From contig JBBDPM010000001.1 of NCBI GenBank assembly GCA_040876345.1, positions 192,314 through 256,313 of the forward strand: DNA of 64,000 bases. The letters are read 5' to 3'. Below the pieces are notes generated by a model. It saw nothing but the letters and a program-made list of their open reading frames with translations, did not search any database and was not told where the DNA came from. The position numbers were made by a program, and so were the translations under genes. Below, one piece after another: positions 5,565 to 49,337 of the stretch. Source of the stretch: Candidatus Woykebacteria bacterium (GTDB taxonomy: Bacteria; Patescibacteriota; Microgenomatia; Woykebacterales; RBG-16-39-9b). Positions within the stretch are counted from its first letter, which is position 1. Every line of letters starts with the position of its first letter.

Positions 5565-6586
5565 TATCGTTTGTTATCCAATATAATCTCCCAATATCTA
5601 ATAAAACAGATTATCAGAGCTAGGTAAAATGGAATTGCCAAGGCAACCTCAACTGGCGTGTGCGTAATTGGTGTATTGATCCCCACGAAATTTTCCACCG
5701 CACTTGGGCCATAGATGCGAAGACCACTGGCTATAAACCAAGACTCGAGTGGAAGGAATACAGTTGTCCCAACGATCAGATAAAGAGCGAACCTCTTAGC
5801 AATGTCTAGTTGAATAAAAATTCTATCCACCAACCCTGTAGCAAGCCAGATAATTATTATCCAAACACCGCTCATTAAAATACTAATGTCGCGGTACATA
5901 TACGACCAAGATGGAAATTTGGCATTAACCACCATTGGCTCTACCATTAGTTCAAAGAAAAATACACCAATAAATGCGAGGGCCAAGTTTCTAAGCCAGG
6001 CTCTGTTTTTCACTGGCACAATAGCTTTATCATCAAGTGAAAAGCTCCAATATTTATAAAAGGCTATTACTAAACTAGTAAATACCGGTATGTAATAAAG
6101 AGCCTCGATAGGAACGTTTATTATGAAATAGCCAACCAGAGTATCCAAAACCTCTGGTGAGTAGGCTCTTATACCAAGGCCGACTACGCTAGACTCTGCA
6201 ATAAATACAGCTACAGTTATTAGTAGTAAGTAAACAATAAACCTCTGCCACTCAATATATTTTGAAAAAAACTTATCCACCAAAATTACAGCCGTCAAAA
6301 TCATTGTTGACCAACCAACAGTTAAAATCCAACTCACATCTCTATAAACATACGCCCACCACCCAAGTTTAAAATTGTTCCACATTGGAGCAGTAAAGAT
6401 TTCAAATATTAGGACTCCGGCGGCTACTAGGAAATAACGTTGAGGAATCTTATCCTTAATTCTGGATAGTAGAAAAAGAATAATTATTGTACCGAGTATA
6501 ATAAATATTTCGAAAAAAAGAATTGATAACGTTGGTGTTTTATCAAACTCGTGTAGTAAATTATATGTTATATCTTTTGGTATCAT
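5564..6586 (-). CDS. polytopic integral membrane protein with internal duplication
   Basis: 340 aa, about 10 TM. The two halves share the WW(A/S)Y(V/M)YRD(V/I)S...W...GLVD(K/R) motif. 4-nt overlap with radical SAM gene upstream; start overlaps the stop of the pilin-like gene. Confidence 0.5.
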   Translation of the reverse strand: MIPKDITYNLLHEFDKTPTLSILFFEIFIILGTIIILFLLSRIKDKIPQRYFLVAAGVLIFEIFTAPMWNNFKLGWWAYVYRDVSWILTVGWSTMILTAVILVDKFFSKYIEWQRFIVYLLLITVAVFIAESSVVGLGIRAYSPEVLDTLVGYFIINVPIEALYYIPVFTSLVIAFYKYWSFSLDDKAIVPVKNRAWLRNLALAFIGVFFFELMVEPMVVNAKFPSWSYMYRDISILMSGVWIIIIWLATGLVDRIFIQLDIAKRFALYLIVGTTVFLPLESWFIASGLRIYGPSAVENFVGINTPITHTPVEVALAIPFYLALIICFIRYWEIILDNKR

Positions 6587-36929: not shown

Positions 36930-38189
36930 ATGAAGAATACTGCCGTATCAAAGGTGGTGATTGTTGGTGCTGGTTTTGCCGGCGTCAGAGTTGCCCTAGA
37001 TCTTGCAAAATCTAAGTATCCTCAAGAAATAATTCTAGTTAACAAAAATTCTTACCACGAGTTTCACGCTGATCTTTATGAGATAGCCACCACCACACTT
37101 CCGGAGCCGCAAAGAAAACAAATATCTCGATTTACCTATGAAAACTTGAAAGGTTCGGTTGCCATACCCTTAGAGCAGATTTTTAAAGGTACAAACGTCA
37201 AAATTATCACCGATACAATAATCTCACTCGATCTAGAAAGTAAGAAGTTAGCGTTAGAATCTAGCAAGCCACTATTTTATGATGTCCTAGTTCTTGCTCT
37301 TGGAAGCGAGACAAACTACTTTGAAATTTCAAATTTGGAAAAATACTCTCTTCCCCTGAAGACAGTAGATGATGCTCTTAATATCAGGGACGAAATCGAC
37401 GAGATCTTCATGAGGAAGAAGAATGGCGATAAAATTTCGATCGTAGTTGGGGGTGGGGGTTTCACTGGGGTTGAGTTTGCCTCAGAATTAGTCGGATTTT
37501 TAAAAGATTTAAGTTTAATTCACGTGCATAAGGGACATGATGTTAAGCTGTCGGTAGTTGAAGCATGCCCAGCTTTGATAAATGGTGTCTCTCCTTCAAT
37601 TCAGGATGAAGCGAGGAAACGCCTTGAGCACTTAGGAATTCGACTGTACTTGGACAGCAAAATTACAAAAGTTACCAAAAAAATCGTTTATGCCGAACCA
37701 CACTTGGCTATCCCTTACGATTTGCTTGTCTGGACAGCCGGTATAAAGGCAAACAGTTTAGTCTCATCTCTAACTGGAGTTCATGTCGAAAAAACTTGTT
37801 TAGTGGTAGATAAGACCTTACGAGTTATACATTTTAGAAATGTTTTTGCGGTTGGTGATCTAGCCTACTGCTTTGATGAGGAGAAAAGCTGCCCAGTTCC
37901 CTCAACTGCCCAAACCGCAATTCACCAAGGCAAACATACGGCAATAAATATCGCTAGATTTCTAAAAAAGGAGGACCTCTTGCTTTATAAACCCAAAATG
38001 CCAAATTTTATTATTCCGCTTGGAGGCAAATATGCAGCCGCCCAAGTTGGCAACGTTATTATCAAAGGTACTCAAGCTTGGTGGTTAAAAAGAGCTGCTG
38101 CCCTTCGTTATTTTTCCTCTATCTTACCAGCTGCGGATGCCCTGAAAGTATGGGCTTCTGGTAACCGCTTCTTTGTAGCCAATGATTAA
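36930..38189 (+). CDS. ndh: type II NADH dehydrogenase / FAD-dependent pyridine nucleotide-disulfide oxidoreductase
   Basis: Two GxGxxG dinucleotide folds (VVIVGAGFAGV, VGGGGFTGVE). Confidence 0.75.
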   Translation: MKNTAVSKVVIVGAGFAGVRVALDLAKSKYPQEIILVNKNSYHEFHADLYEIATTTLPEPQRKQISRFTYENLKGSVAIPLEQIFKGTNVKIITDTIISLDLESKKLALESSKPLFYDVLVLALGSETNYFEISNLEKYSLPLKTVDDALNIRDEIDEIFMRKKNGDKISIVVGGGGFTGVEFASELVGFLKDLSLIHVHKGHDVKLSVVEACPALINGVSPSIQDEARKRLEHLGIRLYLDSKITKVTKKIVYAEPHLAIPYDLLVWTAGIKANSLVSSLTGVHVEKTCLVVDKTLRVIHFRNVFAVGDLAYCFDEEKSCPVPSTAQTAIHQGKHTAINIARFLKKEDLLLYKPKMPNFIIPLGGKYAAAQVGNVIIKGTQAWWLKRAAALRYFSSILPAADALKVWASGNRFFVAND

Positions 38190-38249
38190 ATTTTAGGTAT
38201 TGACATATGCAACTTAGTTGCATTAGTATACTTAGAATAGTAAAAAATT

Positions 38250-38663
38250 ATGCAGCTGACCGATTATCTTAGAAAAATAGGGGCTCGGGTAACCCCGGCC
38301 AGAAGATCTATCCTTGGGGCAATTGCTGAATCTAGTAAACCAATCTCCGCTGATGAAATTGGTGTTAAATTGATCAAAGATGGGTTTGAAGTAAATAAAA
38401 CCACTATTTACCGCGAGCTAGAGTTTCTAAAAACGGAAAATCTAATTCGCGAAATAGATTTTTTGGATGGTAGGAAAAGGTATGAGGCAACCTCCTATGG
38501 TCACCATCACCACGTAATCTGTAAAGCATGTGGTGGTGTCGAAGAGCTAGGATCCATCCCCGAATATTTCATAAACACTTTTTCCAGAAAGTCCCAGTTT
38601 TTAATACAAGATCATAATTTAGAATTTTTTGGTCTTTGTCAGAGTTGTCAAAAGGAGGTCTAA
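38250..38663 (+). CDS. Fur-family metalloregulator (probably Zur)
   Basis: TPARRSILGAI...HHHHVICKACG metal-site pattern. Directly precedes ZIP transporter. Confidence 0.75.
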   Translation: MQLTDYLRKIGARVTPARRSILGAIAESSKPISADEIGVKLIKDGFEVNKTTIYRELEFLKTENLIREIDFLDGRKRYEATSYGHHHHVICKACGGVEELGSIPEYFINTFSRKSQFLIQDHNLEFFGLCQSCQKEV

Positions 38664-39406
38664 TGACTTTAGCTTATATTTTAGTTTTTACGTTTATAGG
38701 TAGTATTTTTTCACTGATTGGAGGATTACTTCTACTACTTAAAAAGGGCTTTGCCGTAAAGATTTCGCACTACTTAGCTGCTTTTGCGGCTGGGGCTTTG
38801 CTTGGCACGGCTTTTTTTGATCTTTTGCCCGAGGCTATCGAAGAATCTGCAGATGGTAGTATTTTTGTCTGGACACTATTTGGAATTTTGCTCTTCTTCA
38901 TTCTTGAAAGGACTCTACATTGGTTTCACCATCATCATCGTGAGCACGGTGAAGAGCAGGAACCAACAGTGCTTTTGCTAAACTTTGGGGATGCTATTCA
39001 TAATTTCCTTGACGGTGTAGCCATAGCGGCTACCTTCTTAGTCGATATAAAACTTGGTATTATTACCTCCTTTGCCGTAGCTGCTCACGAAATACCGCAA
39101 GAAATAGGTGATTTTGGTATTATGCTTCACAAAGGTTTAAGCGGCCGAAAAGTCCTGCTCCTTAACGTTTTGGTTGCCCTGACAGCAATTGCCGGCGCTC
39201 TTATCACCTACTTTTTGGGCGACATGATAAAACCTCTTTTACCAGTTGCTTTATCTATCACGGCAGGATTTTTTATTTATATAGCTTCATCAGACTTGAT
39301 ACCAGAAATACATAATAAAAATGCTCAAAAGTTAGCCGCAATAGAAAGTGGCTTACTTATTCTCGGAGTGGTAGTGATTTACGTATTTGTAAAACTTTTT
39401 GAATAG
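38663..39406 (+). CDS. zupT: ZIP-family zinc transporter
   Basis: HWFHHHHREHGEE His-rich loop, HEIPQEIGDF motif. Start after AAAGGAGGT RBS with TAATG overlap of Fur stop. Confidence 0.75.
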   Translation: MTLAYILVFTFIGSIFSLIGGLLLLLKKGFAVKISHYLAAFAAGALLGTAFFDLLPEAIEESADGSIFVWTLFGILLFFILERTLHWFHHHHREHGEEQEPTVLLLNFGDAIHNFLDGVAIAATFLVDIKLGIITSFAVAAHEIPQEIGDFGIMLHKGLSGRKVLLLNVLVALTAIAGALITYFLGDMIKPLLPVALSITAGFFIYIASSDLIPEIHNKNAQKLAAIESGLLILGVVVIYVFVKLFE

Positions 39407-39455
39407 ACCCCACTATTCGTCTTGCCCAGTTTGTCTAGTCAGTAAATGTGAATGC

Positions 39456-39484
39456 TTGACAAGATATAGTTTAGTTACTATACT
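39456..39484 (+). promoter_or_regulatory. candidate promoter plus imperfect palindrome (AGTTACTA-N7-TAGTAGCT) upstream of MarR gene
   Basis: TTGACA-17-TATACT. Palindrome overlaps -10 and may act as autoregulatory operator. Confidence 0.35.
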
Positions 39485-39506
39485 ATTTAGTAGCTTAACT
39501 ACAATA

Positions 39507-39983
39507 ATGGATAAGAATCGAGAAGAACTACTGGAAAAACTTTTTAAAGAGATGATCTATACTTTCCGCTCTCTTAAGCCGGAAGGCCATAACTTTAGTG
39601 GTTACGATCATCACTGGAGCAAACGCAAATTTGGACGAGGGCACATGGATCTTTTTTTCCGGCTCATGAAAGAAAAGGAAGGGGTCTTTGCCAAAGATCT
39701 AGCCGATTCTTTGTGTGTAACCCCAGGAGCTATTACCCAAATCGTTGATGGAGCAGTCAAGGGTGGTATGGTCACTCGTATGGAGGATCCAGCTGATCGT
39801 CGCTTTCAAAAAATAAAACTTTCCGACAAAGCTAAAAGTAAAATAGAAGGGTTTAAGAAGAATTATTTTGAAAAACTCGAGCCCAGATTTTCCTCATTGA
39901 GTGATGGGGAAATCTCTCAATTATCTAATTTGCTTGCTAAAGTCAACTCTGTATCGGCCGAAAAGGAAGCTGTCCATGAATAA
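39507..39983 (+). CDS. MarR-family transcriptional regulator
   Basis: wHTH block LADSLCVTPGAITQIVDGAVKGGMVTRMEDPADRR. Start chosen at MDKNREEL. Confidence 0.6.
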   Translation: MDKNREELLEKLFKEMIYTFRSLKPEGHNFSGYDHHWSKRKFGRGHMDLFFRLMKEKEGVFAKDLADSLCVTPGAITQIVDGAVKGGMVTRMEDPADRRFQKIKLSDKAKSKIEGFKKNYFEKLEPRFSSLSDGEISQLSNLLAKVNSVSAEKEAVHE

Positions 39984-40932
39984 TTCGGAATCCATAATAT
40001 CTGTAAAGAATATTTATAAAAGCTTTGGGAAAACCAAGGCCCTTTCTGGTGTCAGTTTTGAGGCGGAAAAAGGCACAGTCTTGGGCCTTCTTGGTCCTAA
40101 TGGTGCTGGGAAGACGACTTTAATAAAAATATTAACCACCCTTCTTGTTCCAGATCAAGGAAGTGCAAGTGTAGCGGGCTTTGATGTAGCAAAAGATGCT
40201 AATAAACTGCGAAATGTCATTGGACTAGCCGGTCAATACGCTGCAGTTGATGAAAATCTTACCGGTCGAGAAAATTTAGAGATGGTCGCCCGGCTCTATC
40301 ACTTAGGAAGAAAAGAATCTAGGGCGCGAGCAAGTGCAGTGTTAAAGGAAATGACTCTTGAAGAAGCTGCCAATCGAACTGTAAAAACCTACTCTGGAGG
40401 AATGAGACGGCGTTTGGATGTTGGTGCCTCTCTTTTGTTTGAACCAAAAGTTCTTTTTCTTGATGAGCCAACTACTGGTCTAGACCCAAGGACTAGAAGC
40501 GATCTTTGGAAATTTGTTCGAAGTTTGGTAGAAAAAGGCACCTCGGTTGTTTTGACCACTCAGTATTTGGAAGAAGCAGATGCCTTGGCAGATACTATAG
40601 TGTTACTTGATAAAGGGAAAATAATTGCCGATGGAACTAGTCGTGAGTTGAAGCGCAAAATTGGCGGTAGCATGGTGGAAATTGAACCAAAAAATTGGGA
40701 ACAAGCGAGCCAAATCGAAGGTCTTTTAAAAAATAAATTTAAAGAAAGAATTCACGTGAAAGATAGTCATCAGCTAATCACTCTACCAGCGCCAAATGGC
40801 CCAGCCGATCTTCGGGATGCCCTAAATATTTTGGAAGAAGCAGATATCGAGCTGGTCCATATTAGTTTGGCCCAGCCGACTTTAGACGAAGTTTTTCTCA
40901 CTTACACCGGGAAGGAGGTTGTTAGTGAATAG
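39976..40932 (+). CDS. ABC transporter ATP-binding protein (DrrA-like exporter)
   Basis: Walker A GPNGAGKTT, signature YSGGMRRR, Walker B LFLDEPTTGLD. Confidence 0.85.
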   Translation: MNNSESIISVKNIYKSFGKTKALSGVSFEAEKGTVLGLLGPNGAGKTTLIKILTTLLVPDQGSASVAGFDVAKDANKLRNVIGLAGQYAAVDENLTGRENLEMVARLYHLGRKESRARASAVLKEMTLEEAANRTVKTYSGGMRRRLDVGASLLFEPKVLFLDEPTTGLDPRTRSDLWKFVRSLVEKGTSVVLTTQYLEEADALADTIVLLDKGKIIADGTSRELKRKIGGSMVEIEPKNWEQASQIEGLLKNKFKERIHVKDSHQLITLPAPNGPADLRDALNILEEADIELVHISLAQPTLDEVFLTYTGKEVVSE

Positions 40933-41695
40933 TATATCAAACGCTATAAGCGACGTACTGGTAATTACTGAGCGCAATTTAATTAGATACAGGCGTATTC
41001 CACAACTTTTGATATTTTCCACCATACAACCAGTAATGTTTTTGGTTCTTTTTAACTACGTGTTTGGAGGTGCTATTTCTCAAACGGGCCAAACCGGAAA
41101 TTATATTAATTTTCTTTTGCCGGGGATCATTGTTCAGACAGTACTTTTTGGGGCAAGCCAGGCAAGTGTGGGAATGTCAGCTGATATGGCTTCCGGAATT
41201 ATGGACAGGTTTCGCTCTCTACCGATAGCCCGTTTTTCAGTAATTGCTGGAAGAGTATTGGCAGACACGATAAGAAATATTTTTGTGGTATTGATAATGT
41301 TGGCAGTTGGTTTACTGCTTGGCTTTGAATTTCAAAATGGAATTGGAAACCTAATTATAGGAGTTCTTTTAGCAGTGCTTTTTGGATTTTCTTTCACCTG
41401 GATATCGATCGCAATTGGGCTGATGGTTAAGGATCCCGAGGCTGCCCTGCCAGCTGGTTTTTTGTGGATTTTTCCTTTGGTTTTCGCAAGCGGGATTTTT
41501 GTACCAGTGAAGACCATGCCTGAATGGCTTCAAGTTTTTGCAAGAAATCAGCCAGTTACAAGGGTTGCAGATGCGGTGCGCTCTTACATGATTGGTGGCT
41601 CACACGACAGCCTAGTCCCAGCTCTTTTATGGATGGGTGCCATAACAGCCGTTTTCATATTTTTAAGCATATGGTTTTACCGAAGAGCGAAATAA
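40919..41695 (+). CDS. ABC-2 type transporter permease
   Basis: 6 TM ABC-2 topology; overlaps ATPase gene. Confidence 0.7.
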   Translation: MLVNSISNAISDVLVITERNLIRYRRIPQLLIFSTIQPVMFLVLFNYVFGGAISQTGQTGNYINFLLPGIIVQTVLFGASQASVGMSADMASGIMDRFRSLPIARFSVIAGRVLADTIRNIFVVLIMLAVGLLLGFEFQNGIGNLIIGVLLAVLFGFSFTWISIAIGLMVKDPEAALPAGFLWIFPLVFASGIFVPVKTMPEWLQVFARNQPVTRVADAVRSYMIGGSHDSLVPALLWMGAITAVFIFLSIWFYRRAK

Positions 41696-41725: not shown

Positions 41726-42667
41726 GTGAAAGCAGCTCAGATTAATAAATATGGTGGTGTTGATGTTATTGAGATTAATGAAAACGCCCCAAAACCATCT
41801 GTATCAGAAGGCCAAATTCTAGTCGCGGTTCACGAAGCTAGTATTAATCCTATCGATTGGAAGATTAGAGCGGGTTACTTACAGGGTATGAATCTACCGT
41901 TCCCAATGACTTTAGGAGGAGATTTTTCTGGTGTAGTTATAGAAGTTGGTGGAAATGTAACCAATTTCAAAGTGGGAGACGCAGTTTATGGGCAAGGTGG
42001 CGTTTTAAATGAAGGATCCGGATCCTTTGCCGAGTTTGCAGCAGCGAGTGTCAACAAAGTAGCTGCCAAACCAAAAAATTTGGATTTTCGGCAGGCAAGC
42101 TCCCTCCCGCTCACTGGCGTAAGTGCTCTGCAAGCTTTAGAGGGTCACATTAACTTGAGTAAGGGCCAAAAAATTCTCATTCATGGTGGTGCTGGTGGTA
42201 TCGGTACTATTGCTATTCAAATAGCAAAAGCTTTAGGTGCTTATGCCGTGACTACAGTAAATGGTAAAGATATAGACTATGTTAAAAGTTTGGGGGCAGA
42301 CGAAACAATTGACTATAAAAATAATGATTTTGAAAGGAAATTAAAAGACTTTGATGCGGTTTTTGATACTGTTGGTGGTGATACCACAGATAAATCTTTC
42401 AAAGTGCTAAAAAAAGGTGGGACTCTTGTTTCGATGGTTAGGGAACCTAGCCCAGAACTAGCGGAAAAATATGGAATTACGGCCATTCGGCAAGGTACAG
42501 ATTCTAATCCAGAGCGTTTAAGCAGGCTTTCAGAATTAGTTGAGAGTGGAAAAATTAAAGCCCAAATAGATAAAGTATTTCCTTTAGAACAAGTGAGAGA
42601 AGCGTTTAAACACCTCGAAGAAGGCCACCCAAGAGGTAAAGTAGTTTTAGAGATTAAGAAAAACTAA
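41726..42667 (+). CDS. zinc-type alcohol dehydrogenase-like / NADPH:quinone oxidoreductase (MDR family)
   Basis: GTG start. GGAGGIGTIAIQIAK NAD(P)-binding motif. Confidence 0.75.
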   Translation: MKAAQINKYGGVDVIEINENAPKPSVSEGQILVAVHEASINPIDWKIRAGYLQGMNLPFPMTLGGDFSGVVIEVGGNVTNFKVGDAVYGQGGVLNEGSGSFAEFAAASVNKVAAKPKNLDFRQASSLPLTGVSALQALEGHINLSKGQKILIHGGAGGIGTIAIQIAKALGAYAVTTVNGKDIDYVKSLGADETIDYKNNDFERKLKDFDAVFDTVGGDTTDKSFKVLKKGGTLVSMVREPSPELAEKYGITAIRQGTDSNPERLSRLSELVESGKIKAQIDKVFPLEQVREAFKHLEEGHPRGKVVLEIKKN

Positions 42668-42675
42668 CCTTTATT

Positions 42676-42745
42676 CTATGCTGGGGGGCATTTATCAAAC
42701 CGCATTTCTTGAAGTGCTATTTCAAGGGTACGACATTAGATTTGC
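42676..42745 (-). repeat. degenerate copy A of the secA 3' end (encodes ...PLK*HFKKCGLINAPQH...)
   Basis: About 75% nt identity to copy B and recognisable similarity to the real secA terminus (KKCGLVNSPTHQ). Out of any intact ORF. Confidence 0.55.
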
Positions 42746-42769
42746 TGCTATGTTTTTGAAAAAATAGCA

Positions 42770-42802
42770 TTGACAAATTGTACATAAAGTGGTACATATA
42801 AT
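42770..42802 (+). promoter_or_regulatory. promoter and GTACATA direct repeats (candidate Phd operator) upstream of phd
   Basis: TTGACA-17-TACATA (and TATAAT 4 nt further). GTACATA at 42780 and 42792. Confidence 0.4.
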
Positions 42803-42804
42803 AT

Positions 42805-43059
42805 ATGAGTGACTTAGTATCTATCTCTGATGCAAGAACAAACCTTCCCGACCTTGTTGCCAAGGTTAGTAATAGTATGGGTAGAGTAGTAATTACTGTC
42901 AACGGCAAGCCTCGGGCTACACTCGTAAGCGCAGAAGAGTTGGAGTCTCTCGAAGAAACAGCAGAAATCCTTTCTATTCCAGGGGCGAAGAAAAGTATTA
43001 TAGAAGGACTAAGACAAGCAAAAAAAGGACAAGGCATTTCTCTATCCCAATTAAAGTAA
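42805..43059 (+). CDS. type II antitoxin, Phd/YefM family
   Basis: 84 aa, MSDLVSISDARTNLPDLVAKV...VVITVNGKPRATLVSAEELESLEET. Confidence 0.8.
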   Translation: MSDLVSISDARTNLPDLVAKVSNSMGRVVITVNGKPRATLVSAEELESLEETAEILSIPGAKKSIIEGLRQAKKGQGISLSQLK

Positions 43060-43063
43060 GCTT

Positions 43064-43312
43064 ATGGAAGTAATTATTACTCCAAAGGCTAGTAAACAAT
43101 ACGACAAAATTCCCAATACTGAAAAGCTTAAAGTAGAAAAGAAACTTCTTGTACTTAGTCAAAACCCATATGATGGTAAGAAGCTTTCAGGTAATTTCTT
43201 AGGATTAAGATCCTTGAGAGCATGGCCATATAGAATAATTTATTACCTTGATGAGAAGTTACAGAAAGTATTTGTAGTTACTATTGCTCATAGGCAAGGT
43301 GTTTATGAATAA
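43064..43312 (+). CDS. relE: type II toxin, RelE/ParE family
   Basis: 82 aa. LSGNFLGLRSLRAWPYRIIYYLDEKLQKVFVVTIAHRQGVYE aligns with RelE C-terminus. Confidence 0.85.
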   Translation: MEVIITPKASKQYDKIPNTEKLKVEKKLLVLSQNPYDGKKLSGNFLGLRSLRAWPYRIIYYLDEKLQKVFVVTIAHRQGVYE

Positions 43313-43317
43313 ATTAT

Positions 43318-43415
43318 TAAGTTCTAGATTTAGCAATATTTTCTTGATGTGTCGGTATATTTACAAGACCACAACGCTTGAAGTGCTGTTTTAATGGGGC
43401 ACATATAGGTTTAAT
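43318..43415 (-). repeat. degenerate copy B of the secA 3' end (encodes ...ICAPLKQHFKRCGLVNIPTHQENIAKSRT*)
   Basis: 50/63 nt identical to the real secA terminus. Starts 6 nt after relE stop. Not part of an intact gene. Confidence 0.6.
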
Positions 43416-43417
43416 GA

Positions 43418-44386
43418 TTAAGAATCAGTTATTATTCTGATTTTTTCAAAATTCCTTCCTTCTAATCCTTCTATCGCTATTTTTTCTTTGGAAAATTTTG
43501 TTTTTTCTATTTGTTTTGGAGAAAGAATGTATTCGATAAAACTATCCCCCATTTTTTTCAAAGCACCAATTCCAACCCAGAATTTTGCGATAGAAGTTTT
43601 GGTTGTGCCAACGATGATAAATTTTCCAGAAGGAAGAGGCTGGCTAAAAACCGGTATTTTATCCTCTTTGTAGTAATAGCCAATGTCTCTTTTTAGTCCG
43701 ATATAAGCGTCGTGAATAGTGCGTATTTTCTCTCTCCATTTGGGGTCTTTTTTCTGCTCGGGGGTTGGATTTGCATTTAGCTCAACTGCCTGCAAATCTT
43801 CCTCAGAAAACGTGGGATTTGTTTTTGTCAGAGCGTTTGTCCTTTCATCTAATGATTCGTAGAAGTCTTCTACGGATGAAACCTGGTCTTCAAATTTAGT
43901 TATGGTCATTTTGAAGTTTTTTGGTTGGTAGCTTCTCAGGAAGTCTATTATCTTGGTGTATTCGGTGATATAAGATTCGACATCTGCAAGTGAGATATTA
44001 TCCATTTTGGGAAGAATGATATCATCCACAAAATAATCGAACCAAACCCCCGGTGTATAAATTTCACAAATTGGTTTTAGCCATTTTGTATAGTACATTG
44101 CAGCGAAGAGTTCGGCCCAATCCGGAAAGGGAGCTTCTTCTAGACTCCAGAGTTTATAGGCTCCATGAGGAAAAGTGAAGTTTATAGGAAGATTTTTTTC
44201 TACGTTTATTTTTATCGCCCCTCTTATTTGATCGGTGAGCTCTGGGCTCGCAGAATATTTTCTAAACTTTTTTGACATTACTATCCTGTAGATAGCCTCG
44301 ACCAATTCCTGATCGCTTGGTTTTGATATACCGGAGGGTTCCAGTAGGTTTTTTAAACTAGATTCTATGTATTCTTGGACCGTCAT
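43418..44386 (-). CDS. hypothetical protein (322 aa), cargo of secA-3' insertion cassette
   Basis: Soluble, no recognisable catalytic motif. Lies between copy B and the higBA pair. Confidence 0.5.
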   Translation of the reverse strand: MTVQEYIESSLKNLLEPSGISKPSDQELVEAIYRIVMSKKFRKYSASPELTDQIRGAIKINVEKNLPINFTFPHGAYKLWSLEEAPFPDWAELFAAMYYTKWLKPICEIYTPGVWFDYFVDDIILPKMDNISLADVESYITEYTKIIDFLRSYQPKNFKMTITKFEDQVSSVEDFYESLDERTNALTKTNPTFSEEDLQAVELNANPTPEQKKDPKWREKIRTIHDAYIGLKRDIGYYYKEDKIPVFSQPLPSGKFIIVGTTKTSIAKFWVGIGALKKMGDSFIEYILSPKQIEKTKFSKEKIAIEGLEGRNFEKIRIITDS

Positions 44387-44549
44387 ATTGGAGATGCGGA
44401 GTAGTCATTACTCTACTGTCGCAGCTTTGCAATCTGCTGCCTATTCTCGGCCACCGCACCACAGACATTATATCTTTATAGGAAGTGTAATTCTACAGCA
44501 AGGCAGATCATAATCTATGCTAGAATGGCAGCTATAAGGATGAGGGGAG

Positions 44550-44822
44550 TTATTTTATCTGAACTAAAAGTTCTGAATCTGTGGCTTTGGTGACTTTTTC
44601 GAGGAATTCGAGAGAAGGGTTTGAGTTACCAGACTCGAGGCGAGCAATGGCGGATTGTTTTGTCCCCACTTTTTTTGCCAGCTGTTCTTGAGTAAATCCC
44701 TTTTTGAGTCGTGCTTCGATAAGTTGAGACACCAGTTGGTAATGAGGCGTAAGTTTTTCGTATTCTTTAGAGATATTTTTATTTTTTAGTAGTTCTGCCT
44801 TGAGAGTTTTCCAATTTTTCAT
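44550..44822 (-). CDS. higA: HigA-like XRE-family HTH antitoxin
   Basis: 90 aa. FTQEQLAKKVGTKQSAIARLESG HTH. Follows toxin gene with 21-nt gap. Confidence 0.75.
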   Translation of the reverse strand: MKNWKTLKAELLKNKNISKEYEKLTPHYQLVSQLIEARLKKGFTQEQLAKKVGTKQSAIARLESGNSNPSLEFLEKVTKATDSELLVQIK

Positions 44823-44843
44823 AACGCTAATATAACATATACG

Positions 44844-45179
44844 TTATACTAGTGTCAACGTCCCCAATCGTTTCAAGGCTGTGTCTATTTCTTGGCGGGG
44901 AGTTTTCTGTTTCTTTTTTATAAAAGCGTGGAGTAAATAAATATCTTTCTTAGCATAGCCGTAGAGAATACGAATTTCTTGCCTGCCTCTGACTCGAAGT
45001 TCGTATAAGTCTGCTGTTAGCTTCTTAGTATGCGGCATCCCTAACCGAGAACCATAACTTTCCAACAGGTCAATCACGTGGATTACTTTAGCTACTGTTG
45101 GTTCATCTAGAGTTTTAATAAATTCTTCCACGAACTTTTCGCCACGTGATGATTCAAAAAGGACAACATTCCAGGGCAT
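44844..45179 (-). CDS. higB: HigB-like (Gp49/DUF1044) toxin
   Basis: 111 aa. ...LYELRVRGRQEIRILYGYAKKDIYLLHAFIKK pattern of phage Gp49-type HigB. Toxin-first order. Confidence 0.7.
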   Translation of the reverse strand: MPWNVVLFESSRGEKFVEEFIKTLDEPTVAKVIHVIDLLESYGSRLGMPHTKKLTADLYELRVRGRQEIRILYGYAKKDIYLLHAFIKKKQKTPRQEIDTALKRLGTLTLV

Positions 45180-45283
45180 TATGTATTCATAGTACCAAAT
45201 TAGGGGCGATTAGCAAAAAACTATAGTGGTAGTGGCTAAGATTAAAGTCTAAATCAGAGTAATTTCGACTAAACGAGTAAAAA

Positions 45284-45327
45284 TCTTGAGACTCCGCACG
45301 GAGGTCATAAGTACGGAAATCTCAAGA
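45284..45327. promoter_or_regulatory. inverted repeat TCTTGAGA-N28-TCTCAAGA with nested CTCCG-CA-CGGAG hairpin in higB upstream region
   Basis: Perfect 8-bp arms. Lies upstream of a minus-strand TTGCTA-16-TACTAT promoter-like sequence (about 45190-45225). Confidence 0.3.
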
Positions 45328-45362
45328 ATATTGACTTATAGTTTAAGAAAGTTTTGCTGCTT

Positions 45363-45460
45363 CTAGGCTTTAGACTTGGCCATATTTTCTTGGTGTGTCG
45401 GGCTATTTACAAGCCCACATTTTTTATACTTCAGACCTGAACCACACGGACACGGATCGT
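45363..45460 (-). repeat. copy C: functional 3' end of secA (…CPCGSGLKYKKCGLVNSPTHQENMAKSKA*) homologous to copies A and B
   Basis: See copies A/B. Confidence 0.6.
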
Positions 45461-48104
45461 TGCGGCCGATTTTGGTTTTGTGATCACCGGCAAGGCGTTC
45501 TTCTTTGGTGTTACTTTGGACAGGCTGTCCGCTAGTGGTTGATGATAAATGTTCATGACCTTCATGATCTAAAGCCTGCTGTCGAGACGCTGCTTCTTGT
45601 GGGGCCAACTGAATTTTGTAAATTCGGTGGACCACTTCATAGTCAATCGAGTCCATAAGCTGTTCAAAGAGTTTATAAGCCTCTGCTTTATACTCTACCA
45701 GGGGGTCGCGGCCAGCATAGCCCCGTAGCCCAATTCCTTCTCTCAGGTGATCGATATCTTCAAGATGATCTATCCAGAGAGTATCTATAACTGAGAGTAG
45801 AACTAGTTTTTCTACTTGTCTTGTTAGTTCTTTCCCAAATTGCTCTTCCCGCTTTTCGTACACTTCATGAGCGAGCTTTTTCAAAAGCTCTTCAATTTTA
45901 TCGCTCCCAGAAAGTTTATCAATTTGTTCTTTTATTTCCTTTTGGGAAGGTTCATCAAACGGTAGAATTGTGAAAAACTCTTTAGCTATTCTTTCTAGGT
46001 CAGGTTCTTTACTTTCAAGCTCGGATAAACCAACAATCGTCTCTATCTCAGAGTCAATTTTCTCCATCGTCATTTTCTTTAGCTCTTTTTCGGCATCTTC
46101 TTTATCTGGGTTTTCGGGGTTTCCTAGGGAGAGAATTTTCTTGCGCAAAGAGTAAATGATCTCCCTTTGCTTATTCATGACATCATCGTAATCAACTAAT
46201 CTTTTTCGGATATCAAAGTTATGACCTTCGACTCTGGTTTGAGCACTCTCAATCGCTTTGCTTACAATGTTGTTTTCAATTGGAACATCGTCTGGGATTT
46301 TTAGGGTAGTCATTAGGTTAGCAACAGCGTCTCCTCCAAAAAGGCGCATAATGTCATCTTGCAAACTTACGAAAAATTGAGTTGATCCTTGGTCTCCCTG
46401 ACGTCCAGACCGTCCCCGGAGCTGATCGTCAATTCTTCTTGCTTCATGACGCTCACTACCAATAATATGTAGACCTCCGAGCTTTGTGACGCCTTCTCCA
46501 AGCTTTATATCAACACCTCGACCAGCAATGTTAGTAGCAATTGTCACCTGACCTTTTTGGCCAGCCTCAGAAATAATCTGGGCTTCTTTCTCATGGTTTT
46601 TGGCGTTTAATACCTCATGGGGAACACCGCGCCTTTTTAGAAGAGTGGCCAGCAGTTCATTTTTCTCAATTGAGGTGGTACCGACAAGAATTGGTTGCCC
46701 CTTTTCGTGTCGCTCTTTTATATCATCTGTGACCGCTTCAAACTTGGCTGAAGCAGTTTTATATATTCGGTCGGGTAGATCATCCCTCACCATTGGTTTG
46801 TTGGTGGGGATTATTAGGGCGTCAAGTTTGTAGACTTTGTGAAATTCTTCAGCACTTGTGGATGCGGTTCCTGTCATTCCGGCCAGTTTGTTATACAGTC
46901 GAAAATAGTTCTGGAAGGTAACAGTAGCAAGAGTCAGAGATTCTCTTTGGATTTGGACACCTTCCTTAGCCTCAATCGCCTGATGCAAGCCTTCACTATA
47001 GCGCCGGCCAGGTAAAAGCCTACCTGTGAACTCATCGACAATTATTACCTCACCCTCTTTTACCACGTAATCACGATCCTTCTGGTATAAAGTTTTCGCT
47101 TTTAGAGCTTCTTCAATGTGGTGAAGAGTATCAAAATCTTTTTCGTATAGATTATCCACGCCAAGGGATCGCTCAATTTTCGATATTCCAATTTCGGTTA
47201 GATTTGCAGTTTTTAATTTCTCATCAACTTGGTAATCTGTTTTTTCGACTAATTTATCAACTAGCTTTGAGACCTCGTAATATTTTTCGGTTGATTCTTC
47301 GGCTGGAGCAGAAATAATCAATGGAGTACGAGCCTCATCAATTAAAATTGAGTCTACCTCATCTACGATTGCAAAGTGAAGATCACGCTGCGACATTCTT
47401 TTTAAATCGTTCACCATGTTATCGCGCAGATAGTCAAATCCATATTCGTTGTTTGTGCCGTAGGTAATATCAGCTCTATACGCTTCGGATCTGGTGACTT
47501 CTCGGAGATACTTACCAACACCAAGCCCCTCTTGCTCTGGAGAAAGGGAAAGCTCTGGATCCATTTTTATTTCTGCTTCTTCGGTTTTTGGAGTCTGCGG
47601 GTTGGGATCGAATACGTAAGACCTTTCGTGGTTTATAACTCCAACCGACAAACCAAGGGCGTGATAAATTGGGCCCATCCATTCAGCGTCTCTTTTCGCA
47701 AGATAATCATTAACAGTGACAAGATGGGCTCCCTTTCCTTCAAGAGCATTGAGATAAAGAGGGAGAGTAGCAACTAGTGTTTTCCCCTCACCAGTACGCA
47801 TCTCCGCAATTTTTCCCTGGTGAAGAACGGCGCCACCTAAGAGTTGGACGTCAAAATGCCTTTGTCCGATGGCGCGGCGAGAAGCCTCGCGAGTTACGGC
47901 AAAAGCTTCGGGAAGAATATCATCCAGGGTCTCGCCTTTTTCGAGCCTCTTTTTAAATTCTTCTGTTTTGGCGCGAAGTTTTGCGTCGGAGAGTTTTTTT
48001 ACATCAGCTTCAAGAAGATTGATAAGCTCGATGGTAGTGTCTAATTTTTTTAGCTCTCTTTCATTGGAGTCAAAAATTTTTCCAACAGCGTCAAATATCG
48101 ACAT
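45363..48104 (-). CDS. secA: preprotein translocase ATPase SecA
   Basis: 913 aa. DEAD-like motor motifs, C-terminal Zn-finger CPCGSG...C. Extended -10 (TGGTATACT) only 8 nt before ATG. Confidence 0.95.
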   Translation of the reverse strand: MSIFDAVGKIFDSNERELKKLDTTIELINLLEADVKKLSDAKLRAKTEEFKKRLEKGETLDDILPEAFAVTREASRRAIGQRHFDVQLLGGAVLHQGKIAEMRTGEGKTLVATLPLYLNALEGKGAHLVTVNDYLAKRDAEWMGPIYHALGLSVGVINHERSYVFDPNPQTPKTEEAEIKMDPELSLSPEQEGLGVGKYLREVTRSEAYRADITYGTNNEYGFDYLRDNMVNDLKRMSQRDLHFAIVDEVDSILIDEARTPLIISAPAEESTEKYYEVSKLVDKLVEKTDYQVDEKLKTANLTEIGISKIERSLGVDNLYEKDFDTLHHIEEALKAKTLYQKDRDYVVKEGEVIIVDEFTGRLLPGRRYSEGLHQAIEAKEGVQIQRESLTLATVTFQNYFRLYNKLAGMTGTASTSAEEFHKVYKLDALIIPTNKPMVRDDLPDRIYKTASAKFEAVTDDIKERHEKGQPILVGTTSIEKNELLATLLKRRGVPHEVLNAKNHEKEAQIISEAGQKGQVTIATNIAGRGVDIKLGEGVTKLGGLHIIGSERHEARRIDDQLRGRSGRQGDQGSTQFFVSLQDDIMRLFGGDAVANLMTTLKIPDDVPIENNIVSKAIESAQTRVEGHNFDIRKRLVDYDDVMNKQREIIYSLRKKILSLGNPENPDKEDAEKELKKMTMEKIDSEIETIVGLSELESKEPDLERIAKEFFTILPFDEPSQKEIKEQIDKLSGSDKIEELLKKLAHEVYEKREEQFGKELTRQVEKLVLLSVIDTLWIDHLEDIDHLREGIGLRGYAGRDPLVEYKAEAYKLFEQLMDSIDYEVVHRIYKIQLAPQEAASRQQALDHEGHEHLSSTTSGQPVQSNTKEERLAGDHKTKIGRNDPCPCGSGLKYKKCGLVNSPTHQENMAKSKA

Positions 48105-48253: not shown

Positions 48254-49337
48254 GTGTCTAGGACGCGATACATTCCGGGGTAATTAAAGGAAATTATGCC
48301 GGCTGATTGTCGTCGCGCTGTCTACACACTACCCAGGCTTTCAAAGAGAAACTATGATGTTCTCATGAAAACCATTCACACCTCTCTTACTTTTGATACC
48401 TCAGATATTGCTAAGTACCGTTTCCATGTTCTTACAATCTTCTACAAACACGGACTTAAGGCAGTCCAAGATGCCTTTGGAGTCAAGAAAAGTACTTTGT
48501 ATGATTGGCGGAAGACCTATGAGAGTTCTGGTAAAAAGCTCTCTTGTCTAGTTCCTAAAAGCCCAAACCTAAGAGAACCAGAGGGATGGCGATCGATTGG
48601 CGCCTTGAGGTGTTTATTAAGGCTCTCAGAGTTAAGTACGGCCGCCTCTCTAAGTACAAGATTAAAATCTTTCTTGATGAATACGCTAAAAGCCTAGGTA
48701 TTGCCAGTTACGGGGTAACTAAAATTAACAAGATCATTAAAAGAAGACACTATTACTTCTATGGTAAAACTAAGGTAAAAAGAAGGACAGGCGGCGCAAT
48801 TAAACGACTAAGACGAACCCCAAAAGAGACTGTACCCGGTTATCTACAAATGGACTCAATTACTGTCTACGTCACTAGCCAGAAGTATTATTTCGTGTCA
48901 GTGATTGACATTGTGACTAAGTTTGCTTGGTGCTCTTTAGTGGCGAGTTCAACTGCCAAGAACTCCACGGTTACCTTGGAAAAATTCCAAGCTAATTACC
49001 CTTATCCAGTTAGGGTCATCCAAACTGACAACGGTCATGAGTTCTTAGGTGACTTCCAAGCCTACTGTGAAGAGAGGTCGATACCGCCCGAGTTTATTTA
49101 TCCGCGCAGCCCGAAGATTAACGGGGTAGTAGGGAGGTTTAATCAGACTGTCCAGGAAGAATTTATTACCCGCGCCGACGAGCTCTATTACAACCGTTCT
49201 GGGTTTGAGGAGAAACTTACGAAATACTTAACTTGGTACAATAATTCTAGACCACACCATTCCCTGAACCTCCGCACCCCAGTGGCCTACTTAAAGGAGT
49301 TTTAACTAGAATTCCGAAATGTGTCCGTCCTATACAC
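48254..49337 (+). mobile_element. IS481-family insertion sequence (about 1.08 kb)
   Basis: Imperfect terminal inverted repeats GTGTCTAGGACGCGATACATTCCGG (48254-48278) and GTGTATAGGACGGACACATTTCGG (reverse complement of 49314-49337). Encodes HTH+rve transposase. Confidence 0.65.
48296..49305 (+). CDS. DDE transposase (HTH + rve integrase core), reading frame broken by a -1 shift near 48556-48562
   Basis: OrfB-part motifs IQTDNGHEF and YPRSPKINGVVGRFNQT (compare IS481 TRPYSPQTNGKVERFNRT). N-terminal 88 aa and C-terminal 249 aa in frames differing by -1. No canonical A-AAA-AAG slippery site. Confidence 0.6.

Follow-up and report, generated by a model that had tools for sequence, protein, structure and literature searches.

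A tRNA-Cys-like RNA is the conserved partner of a Patescibacterial protein family predicted to be a remote relative of isonitrile synthases

A stretch of 64,000 nucleotides (nt) from a Candidatus Woykebacteria contig (JBBDPM010000001.1; here called the window, with its own numbering used throughout) encodes a 322-amino-acid (aa) protein on the minus strand at positions 43418 to 44386. We report that this gene forms one conserved unit with a tRNA-Cys-like RNA located immediately upstream and that the protein family appears, from profile and predicted-structure comparisons, to be a new and divergent member of the isonitrile synthase (ICS) superfamily. An earlier sequence-only reading of this DNA had described an unplaceable soluble protein between two toxin-antitoxin (TA) modules in an apparent insertion cassette and had proposed, by association, a role in defense or addiction. 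The description stands, and the proposed role is not supported. Our confidence is high that four statements hold, namely, that the family belongs to the ICS superfamily, that RNA and gene form a module, that the gene has no functional TA link, and that the module in the window sits in a cassette context. The bacteria in question, the candidate phyla radiation (CPR) or Patescibacteria, make up a large part of bacterial diversity, and most of their conserved proteins have no assigned function.

RESULTS

The RNA upstream of the gene

The gene is an uninterrupted open reading frame (ORF) of 322 codons plus a stop. Its translation begins with MTVQEYIESSLKNLLEPSG, and the plus strand across the same interval is closed by many stops. 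Upstream on the same strand lies the gene for an HTH_3 antitoxin. The 163 bp between the two contain a 70-nt tRNA-like RNA (44391 to 44460, minus strand) that the sequence-only reading had overlooked, with a perfect TATAAT hexamer (44472 to 44467, minus strand) ending 6 nt before its first nucleotide, G1. The element was delineated by covariance model, alignment, covariation, and minimum free energy (MFE) folding, as described below; homologous loci are cited by L number and database proteins by P number.

The shared tRNA-shaped leader was first seen when the sequences upstream of the window gene and of its homolog in L101 were compared. At 21 loci, ARAGORN called a tRNA-Cys(GCA) on the same strand as the gene and abutting its start codon. 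These elements, which we term type 1, score 50 to 70 bits on the Rfam tRNA model (RF00005), and their discriminator base lies 1 to 8 nt from the ATG. For comparison, we used the ordinary tRNA-Cys genes that coexist with the element, a few kb from the module, in L003, L024, L027, L039, and L086. Type 1 elements have the acceptor stem GAUGYGG/CCRCAUC (versus GGCGCG... in ordinary tRNA-Cys), and in 18 of the 21 the anticodon loop is CCGCAAG, with C33 and G38 (versus CUGCAAA or UUGCAAA). Such an ordinary tRNA-Cys(GCA), often beside a tRNA-Leu(UAA), was found in 5 of about 84 loci (L086 coordinates, 2148 to 2222 and 5927 to 5999). This proximity is several-fold above chance for a 1-Mb genome and is possibly a trace of the duplication that formed the leader.

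A covariance model (R1) was then built from 20 type 1 elements, leaving the window out. With R1, about 75 of 84 genome loci were found to carry a full-length element directly in front of the gene, as was the window (full length; 37.6 bits; E 4.8e-7). In a sample of 80 further metagenome loci across the wider family, the element was adjacent to the gene in 47 of the 78 with enough upstream sequence. Across loci, the element ends 1 to 14 nt before the start codon. Most of the R1 finds, including that in the window, belong to a second class (type 2), which keeps the type 1 acceptor stem, U73, and the encoded CCA but differs in its D-loop, GAGAAUA, which is short and lacks G18-G19, and in its T-loop, which follows the pattern ..UAAUG... 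In the window element, the acceptor stem GGUGCGG/CCGCAUC is followed by U73, and the anticodon loop is UUGCAAA. With its D-loop GAGAAUA and T-loop AGUAAUGA, it lacks the canonical G18-G19 and T54-Psi55-C56. Its CCA is encoded (C74 at 44391, C75-A76 at 44390 to 44389) and ends 2 nt before the ATG. The window element gave no Rfam match at E up to 1 and no ARAGORN call; its MFE fold is a cloverleaf, and more than 40 type 2 elements align with it in every column. That the window leader might be a decayed tRNA relic was considered and rejected, since more than 40 type 2 elements share the same D-loop and T-loop.

In both classes, covariation supports the cloverleaf. Type 1 elements, with the window row added, have 99.0% of cells paired, with 11 pairs changed on both sides, and type 2 elements, including the window, have 96.3% of cells paired, with 13 such pairs; 0 of 500 shuffles reached these values in either case, and slid controls for cloverleaf pairing were 31 to 52% paired. 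Acceptor pairs 1 to 4 (G1-A2-U3-G4 with C69-A70-U71-C72), together with U73 and C74, are invariant or nearly so in 62 aligned elements, whereas pairs 5 to 7 covary. The RNA usually carries CCA and a GCA "anticodon," and its Cys type is retained while the protein diverges to about 30% identity. Nine genome loci in which R1 found nothing next to the gene were inspected individually. In L048, the element is present with a fully compensated acceptor stem (GAUACAA/UUGUAUC), and in L009 only its 3' end remains. In L076 and L079, the gene is coupled to an upstream gene, and L038, L044, and L085 have no recognizable element within 130 nt upstream.

A promoter also recurs at a fixed place. A -10 hexamer (at least five of six matches to TATAAT) ending 4 to 9 nt before G1 was found at 76 of 120 loci, compared to 19 of 610 control positions; it often has an extended TG, and its typical position is 6 to 7 nt before G1. 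The start codon follows the RNA so closely that there is no room for a Shine-Dalgarno sequence. We conclude that promoter, tRNA-Cys-like RNA, and ORF constitute a single conserved unit, that gene and RNA have evolved as one, and that the RNA is the conserved partner of the family. Given its own promoter and RNA leader, the gene is not a downstream member of the higBA operon. Many database entries are extended at the N terminus across the unrecognized element (P0004, 337 aa; P0006, 346 aa; P0083, 340 aa); by alignment, the true start of the family is a conserved MT.QEYI.

The protein family and its relation to isonitrile synthases

The 322-aa protein is soluble (pI 5.6; longest hydrophobic run of at most 8 residues), and neither Pfam, NCBIfam, PADLOC, and PHROGs nor a phmmer search of PDB sequences returned a significant match. 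To this extent the protein is indeed unplaceable by curated libraries. It is nevertheless the product of a genuine gene: an entry from a Candidatus Woykebacteria metagenome-assembled genome (MAG) is 100% identical (P0001), and a word-indexed search returned 626 homologous clusters at 90% identity. The best 120 homologs, from Woykebacteria, Shapirobacteria, Saccharibacteria, and other CPR lineages, are 51 to 68% identical over their full length. When representatives at 50% identity were searched exhaustively, 370 clusters were obtained at E up to 1e-3, down to 25% identity at full length. In contigs representing one genome per species, a relative is encoded at 181 loci, nearly all of them Patescibacterial, so that the family occurs in at least 181 species genomes; a few MAG titles read "Gammaproteobacteria," "Clostridiaceae," or "Bacillota," labels that we give as they stand. 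Across 37 aligned members, 44 columns are invariant, and the invariant motifs include SKKFRKY, HGAYKLW, DWAELF, EPGVWFD, HDAY, and GTTKxSIAKFWVG.

Structure and profile comparisons placed the family where curated models had not. The AlphaFold2 model of the window protein is of high quality (predicted local distance difference test [pLDDT] score 90.6; predicted template modeling [pTM] score 0.89). In a Foldseek search of the PDB, its sole strong matches were PIsnA (9dhm, 9dh4) and PvcA (3e59), whose chains accounted for all of the top 8 matches (E 1e-9 to 4e-6; template modeling [TM] score 0.54 to 0.63). The next matches were far weaker, comprising the catalytic domains of class I TyrRS and TrpRS and the cyclodipeptide synthase 5ocd (TM about 0.3; E 2e-3 to 1e-2). 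The family profile searched against the PDB matched 9dh4, annotated as an "L-tyrosine/L-tryptophan isonitrile synthase family protein," at E 0.018. With Pfam family PF05141 (DIT1_PvcA), the window protein has no match even at E up to 1. Nine of 37 close members match it weakly (best E 1e-3), and its gathering score of 26.4 bits is passed only by the distant members P0270 (26.8 bits) and P0173 (29.5 bits). One member carries the name "pyoverdine/dityrosine biosynthesis protein Dit1" in Joint Genome Institute (JGI) annotation.

A direct comparison was made with eight annotated full-length isocyanide synthases taken from plasmid records. Using hhalign, a 214-sequence family profile aligned with these eight at 97.1% probability (E 5.6e-11; 244 aligned columns), from query residues 26 to 281 against 12 to 284 of 313. 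Identity is about 14%, and the proteins are similar in size, at approximately 320 aa. Columns invariant in this small set of eight ICS sequences were mapped onto the window protein (Smel numbering first). Kept residues are P57 (P67), K68 (K78), D81 (D89), E84 (E92), P104-G105 (P112-G113), D113 (D121; 78% of the family), Y131 (Y139), Y223 (Y228; 79%), and W273 (W270). Others are replaced: N71 is S81 in the window protein and R in 77% of the family, K74 is L82, D119 is K127 (K or R across the family), H249 is F247, P272 is F269, and H274 is V271 (V or I in the family). The substitutes at N71, K74, D119, H249, and H274 are themselves common within the CPR family. R245 corresponds to P245 in the window and is variable in the family, with no conserved substitute, and the ICS-invariant positions F65, P66, R165, and P250 are also replaced. 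This pattern suggests that the residues of the N-terminal core are kept and that part of the site has been remodeled.

The genes around the family also bear on its placement. The annotated ICS loci that we examined carry TauD/TfdA dioxygenase or P450 neighbors. In contrast, clustering of neighbor ORFs in 80 CPR-family loci gave no recurrent IsnB/PvcB-type dioxygenase, P450, or other tailoring gene. Two clusters of HAD phosphatases adjoin the family gene in 12 of the 80 loci; an HAD gene is also a neighbor in L102 (2634 to 3278), and an HAD domain is fused to a family member once (P0257, 585 aa). PvcA, IsnA, and Dit1 isonitrile synthases act on an amino acid and ribulose-5-phosphate, condensing the alpha-amino group of the former with the keto carbon of the latter. 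The recurrent HAD phosphatases fit a phosphorylated co-substrate and hint at a phosphorylated substrate or product. On a Bacillus thuringiensis plasmid, a bona fide ICS gene is likewise followed by an HAD-like fragment (L089, 4068 to 4301).

Four independent lines of evidence (the JGI name, the PF05141 matches, the PDB profile match, and the modeled fold) agree, and with the direct profile alignment they indicate that the family is a remote homolog of PvcA, IsnA, and Dit1, with a common ancestor and a similar fold. We therefore describe it as a new divergent member of the ICS superfamily; we do not file it as an isonitrile synthase, because the Pfam threshold was failed and no tailoring-enzyme partner was found. 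We found no literature that connects CPR bacteria or tRNA with ICS or Dit1, and the pairing of an enzyme of this family with a tRNA-Cys-like RNA has not been described before.

Protein neighbors across the family

To follow the proposed guilt by association across homologs, we examined 85 homolog loci by BLASTP for relatives of HigB, HigA, Phd, and ParE and found none (0 of 85). Among the clustered neighbor ORFs of 80 loci, there was no conserved protein partner; the most frequent were Peptidase_S51 (13/80), the two HAD clusters (12/80 together), and Ser_hydrolase (8/80). A conclusion drawn from protein neighbors only is incomplete, however, because the conserved partner is an RNA. The contexts of the homologs are ordinary chromosome, with genes for DNA polymerase III, ribosomal protein L19, RarA, and SecA. 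In one Paceibacterota contig, an S-adenosylmethionine (SAM) riboswitch (RF00162, 46.2 bits; L073, 3194 to 3343, minus strand) lies about 2.6 kb upstream of the module. PADLOC defense models returned 0 families for the 322-aa protein at E up to 10, and the model had no viral fold relatives at E up to 1e-3 in the BFVD library. The inference of a defense or addiction role from position is therefore not supported, given the absence of TA relatives, the lack of PADLOC, PHROGs, and viral-fold matches, and the housekeeping contexts. What emerged instead was remote but clear homology to an enzyme family in core-genome surroundings, which is largely what the sequence-only reading had named as grounds for its own refutation. 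We conclude that the 322-aa protein is very unlikely to be a TA-linked defense gene.

A cassette array at the 3' end of secA

The window gene does lie between two TA modules, as the sequence-only reading had stated. On its upstream side are a HigA-type antitoxin gene (HTH_3; 44550 to 44822, minus strand; PF01381, E 5e-15) and a HigB-type toxin gene (Gp49/DUF891; 44844 to 45179, minus strand; PF05973, E 4.5e-25), both within the same repeat-bounded unit as the gene. On the other side, a PhdYeFM antitoxin gene (42805 to 43059) and a ParE_toxin gene (43064 to 43312), identified by Pfam on the plus strand, form a separate 669-bp unit that is convergent with the 322-aa gene at a stop-to-stop distance of 105 bp.

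The insertion cassette suspected earlier is also real. A repeat search revealed a 56-nt direct repeat (82% identical; 43318 to 43373 and 45364 to 45419) bracketing the higB-higA-gene block, and a second pair of direct repeats brackets Phd-ParE. The copy at 45364 to 45419 is the 3' end of secA (45363 to 48104, minus strand), the anchor of the array, and translation of the extra copies gives displaced SecA zinc-finger tails (tblastn within the window, E 3.4e-8 and 8.7e-4). The secA end (45364 to 45428, minus strand) codes for ...YKKCGLVNSPTHQENMAKSKA followed by the stop and serves as an attL-like unit boundary, matching positions 31 to 95 of the site profile at E 3e-12. Attachment (att)-like site A (43318 to 43411, minus strand), which starts 7 nt past the stop codon of the gene, has a cassette-type left arm and then a displaced secA tail reading ...FKRCGLVNIPTHQENIAKSRT and stop. 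It matches the secA tail by blastn (85.7% over 49 nt; E 4.8e-11) and tblastn (75% over 20 aa; E 3.4e-8), matches the site profile at E 1.6e-21, and aligns with sites in L098 and L100. Site C (42649 to 42742, minus strand), reading ...PLK, stop, and HFKKCGLINAPQHR, is an older and more decayed copy that bounds the Phd-ParE unit (tblastn E 8.7e-4; site profile E 1.3e-18).

Relatives showed that such arrays recur. In four of them, with SecA 73 to 80% identical, the GT2-epimerase-CofD-GlmS synteny upstream of secA is conserved; the content downstream of secA is wholly different in each and rich in TA modules. Four att-like sites were found in L098 and three in L100, all in the orientation of secA and delimiting small units. 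The arrays extend over 42649 to 45428 in the window, 9644 to 16523 in L098, and 9645 to 12933 in L100. Their units are 0.7 to 2 kb long and mostly TA modules, with an att-like site of about 95 nt bounding each. The sites have a left arm in common, GAAyCTAT...CCATTAAA..GCACTTCAAAAAATGTGG, which is their own and unlike secA, whereas their right arms look like secA tails, past or present, of the same genome or of related ones. A common left arm with host-like tails is the hybrid that should arise when site-specific insertion is repeated and a new tail arrives with every unit. The Phd-ParE unit of the window recurs in L100 (ParE 83% and Phd 90% aa identity), with 80% nt identity over 725 nt, against 73% aa identity for SecA.

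Neither site profile revealed an att site concealed between higA and the gene, and no att-like site was found near homologs elsewhere (0 of 85 loci). These two results indicate that the RNA-gene module was captured together with higBA as one unit. We conclude that module and higBA constitute one unit of about 2 kb in an array inserted at the secA 3' end, and capture into an array makes the TA neighbors array companions and not functional partners. The 84 nt between higA and the RNA element (44466 to 44549) contain ACACTTC...ATGTCTGTGG, faintly resembling the att-like core GCACTTCAAAAAATGTGG, which the 5' end of the RNA element (GATGYGG) also resembles; there is no profile match, and the resemblance is probably due to chance.

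The recombinase behind the array was not apparent in its surroundings. No Phage_integrase or Resolvase Pfam domain was found among called genes within about 10 kb in L096, L098, and L100, and only an rve-type insertion sequence (IS) transposase was seen there, upstream of secA. No convincing dif-like (Xer) motif was seen in the att-like site, as judged by eye only. In the window, an IS element at 48296 to 49305 (a helix-turn-helix ORF and an apparently frameshifted rve/rve_3 DDE transposase) lies between secA and the GT2 gene; since GT2 directly precedes secA in L098 and L099, the window IS is a lineage-specific insertion. We know of no description of such a cassette array at secA.

Two other modules occur near secA. 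In L101 (3083 to 6960), the RNA-gene module lies directly downstream of secA without TA genes or an att site, and in L035 (5513 to 11084), it lies 1.7 kb upstream. Adjacency to secA as the ancestral state was considered and rejected, as the L101 SecA is only 56% identical, its locus has no att site, and its upstream synteny differs. Modules adjacent to secA number 3 in about 164 loci, the window included, which is not clearly above chance. Beyond the array, a gene for a zinc-type alcohol dehydrogenase/quinone oxidoreductase (41726 to 42667) forms its distal border, and 36930 to 41695 is ordinary chromosome, encoding an NADH dehydrogenase-like flavoprotein, Fur, a ZIP transporter, MarR, and an ABC-2 exporter pair.

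DISCUSSION

In E. coli, CysRS reads the identity of tRNA-Cys at features that match the acceptor end, U73, CCA, and GCA, and the elbow formed by D-loop and T-loop is needed in translation. Because the features read by CysRS are kept in the element while the translation elbow is lost, and because the element is an extra copy wherever an ordinary tRNA-Cys is visible, we favor an enzyme that recognizes this RNA. The module's own promoter would drive RNA and mRNA as a single primary transcript starting at about G1. The RNA would be a dedicated, nontranslational tRNA-Cys derivative recognized by the enzyme; it would most likely be charged by CysRS and would then carry an aminoacyl group. The enzyme would modify the alpha-amino group of this aminoacyl moiety by amine-carbonyl chemistry of the ICS type, using a phosphorylated carbonyl co-substrate, and the mRNA that remains would be essentially leaderless, without a Shine-Dalgarno sequence. 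We propose tentatively, from sequence comparison, that the enzyme recognizes or uses the dedicated RNA, most likely as a cysteinyl carrier. The full version of this proposal, a new tRNA-dependent enzyme class in which an ICS-fold protein would transform the alpha-amino group of cysteine on a CysRS-charged tRNA-Cys derivative encoded at the 5' end of its own mRNA, we regard as doubtful.

Several observations weigh against an RNA-using enzyme. Contact between protein and RNA and aminoacylation of the RNA are both predictions. Position 33 of tRNAs is universally U, and in type 1 elements it is C in 18 of 21; some type 2 elements have GGA or GAA in place of the GCA triplet. Of the genome loci that R1 missed, L082 has a tRNA-Pro upstream of the gene, and in L028 a -10 box stands 7 nt ahead of the ATG. 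Since the element has been lost at about 6 of 84 loci and one locus has a tRNA-Pro instead, it is not indispensable in cis. The substrates of known ICS enzymes are free Tyr or Trp. Use of free amino acids is likewise the published picture for these enzymes (PMC7949033), and the folds known to depend on aminoacyl-tRNA do not include that of ICS enzymes (review, PMC12945691). The likeness of our model to the folds of class I aminoacyl-tRNA synthetases (aaRS) and cyclodipeptide synthases (CDPS) is weak (TM about 0.3; E 2e-3 to 1e-2).

The main alternative is that the tRNA-like RNA is a cis-acting device for expression or processing only and that the enzyme acts on free small molecules and never on RNA. 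An ancestral tRNA-Cys gene would have provided the promoter, and the cloverleaf would define or stabilize the 5' end, its removal leaving a leaderless mRNA. We consider this possible, although on balance we lean against it. The layout suits such a device well, with the ATG 1 to 14 nt after the RNA, no space for a Shine-Dalgarno sequence, and a -10 box placed for transcription to start at G1. Loci without the element show other solutions to the same need, in the form of a -10 box close to the ATG (L028), a tRNA-Pro (L082), or an upstream gene. The anticodon triplet of type 2 elements is not strictly conserved, and characterized ICS enzymes act on free amino acids (PMC7949033). However, a purely structural signal should covary throughout, yet the four terminal acceptor pairs, U73, and C74 are near-invariant in the 62 elements. 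Also weighing against it are the features that type 2 keeps and loses, those read by CysRS and the translation elbow, respectively, and the persistence of the Cys type across protein divergence to about 30% identity.

It is improbable that the protein is a bona fide isonitrile synthase, converting free L-Tyr or L-Trp and ribulose-5-phosphate to an isonitrile, or to an N-formyl amino acid as Dit1 does, for a secondary metabolite. Full-length homology, the fold match to PIsnA and PvcA, the kept core residues (K, D..E, PG, D, and Y), and the JGI name of one member are all in accord with this assignment, as are the HAD phosphatase neighbors, which suit a sugar-phosphate co-substrate. Against it stand the failure of the window protein to match PF05141 even at E 1 and the replacement of the invariant N71, K74, D119, R245, H249, P250, P272, and H274. 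The family also has no recurrent dioxygenase, P450, or tailoring neighbor, unlike annotated ICS loci, and its hosts are genome-reduced CPR bacteria that carry the gene among housekeeping genes.

We judge it similarly improbable that the leader is a tRNA-mimic operator through which the protein represses its own translation, its true substrate being ordinary tRNA-Cys or Cys-tRNA-Cys. The data on protein-RNA recognition are the same for this model as for the carrier model; the RNA abuts the start codon, which is ideal for occlusion, and an ordinary tRNA-Cys lies within a few kb at 5 loci. The operator-mimic and carrier models fit the present data equally. However, 21 genome loci and many metagenome loci have a complete, canonical-looking tRNA (50 to 70 bits on the Rfam model at the genome loci), which is more than a mimic requires. 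Finally, that the gene is defense or addiction cargo of a TA-rich mobile cassette, possibly acting with higBA, is suggested by its place between two TA modules, the att-bounded unit shared with higBA, and the TA-rich arrays downstream of secA in relatives, but this reading has already been largely refuted by distribution (no TA relatives and no att-like site at any of 85 homolog loci, and a family 50 to 68% identical across CPR classes in core contexts), has no PADLOC, PHROGs, or viral-fold match, and sits poorly with a gene that has its own promoter and RNA leader, so that we give it almost no weight.

These results assign to the isonitrile synthase superfamily a family found in at least 181 species genomes, and they identify its real conserved partner as an unannotated tRNA-Cys-derived RNA, overlooked by standard tRNA finders in most genomes. 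They offer a concrete, testable hypothesis, that of a tRNA-dependent or tRNA-recognizing enzyme and of a tRNA-like transcript that releases a leaderless mRNA. If it is true, the module would represent conserved and previously unseen cysteine or cell envelope biochemistry of CPR bacteria and the first connection between isonitrile synthase chemistry and tRNA. The array at the secA 3' end in Woykebacteria is a simple system for gene mobility in a group where little is known about it. The case also illustrates that guilt by association from protein neighbors alone can overlook the decisive neighbor.

Among known cassette systems, the secA array resembles integron attC cassettes, Xer-dependent IMEX, pdif modules, and 3'-end islands in its small repeat-bounded units, which are stacked in one orientation at a fixed anchor. 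As in 3'-end islands, each insertion supplies a new 3' end to the anchor gene and displaces the old one, and the units at secA are mostly TA modules without a recombinase. The array differs in that its anchor is the zinc-finger tail of secA and that no integrase or integron platform lies within 10 kb, and no attC-like hairpin was recognized in its sites, unlike those of integrons.

The enzyme itself shares with PvcA, IsnA, PIsnA, and Dit1 its fold over nearly the full length, a size of about 320 aa, and K78, D89, E92, PG, D121, Y139, Y228, and W270. The CPR family differs in having invariant motifs of its own (SKKFRKY, HGAYKLW, DWAELF, and GTTKxSIAKFWVG), in being nearly restricted to CPR bacteria, in being preceded by a tRNA-like RNA, and in lacking a dioxygenase or P450 partner. 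Use of tRNA is not known for any protein with the ICS fold (review, PMC12945691). The aminoacyl-tRNA-dependent enzymes that resemble class I aaRS (CDPS and SbzA) are alike in the substrate proposed here, an aminoacyl-tRNA-like molecule, and come next after ICS among the fold matches; their fold likeness is nevertheless weak, at a TM of about 0.3.

Parallels also exist for the arrangement of RNA and gene. In the E. coli thrU-tyrU-glyT-thrT-tufB operon, tRNAs and a protein gene share one transcript, and E. coli ThrRS represses its own translation via the tRNA-mimic leader of thrS. In both, as here, a tRNA or tRNA-like structure stands directly upstream of a coding sequence on one transcript. The present module differs from them in its spacing of 1 to 14 nt with no Shine-Dalgarno sequence, in being tied to one protein family, in its conservation across a large radiation, and in the divergence of its RNA into a noncanonical class. 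The nearest likeness to the role that we propose is found in Staphylococcus, in which nonproteinogenic tRNA-Gly isoacceptors serve the FemXAB enzymes that build peptidoglycan bridges and are kept from translation by an altered T-loop and D-loop. Those RNAs are free-standing genes not fused to the mRNA of the enzyme, and they involve another amino acid and the GNAT-like Fem fold. Like the element described here, they are extra copies with synthetase identity kept and the T-loop and D-loop altered, and they serve an enzyme outside the ribosome, as the tRNA-Cys-like RNA may do.

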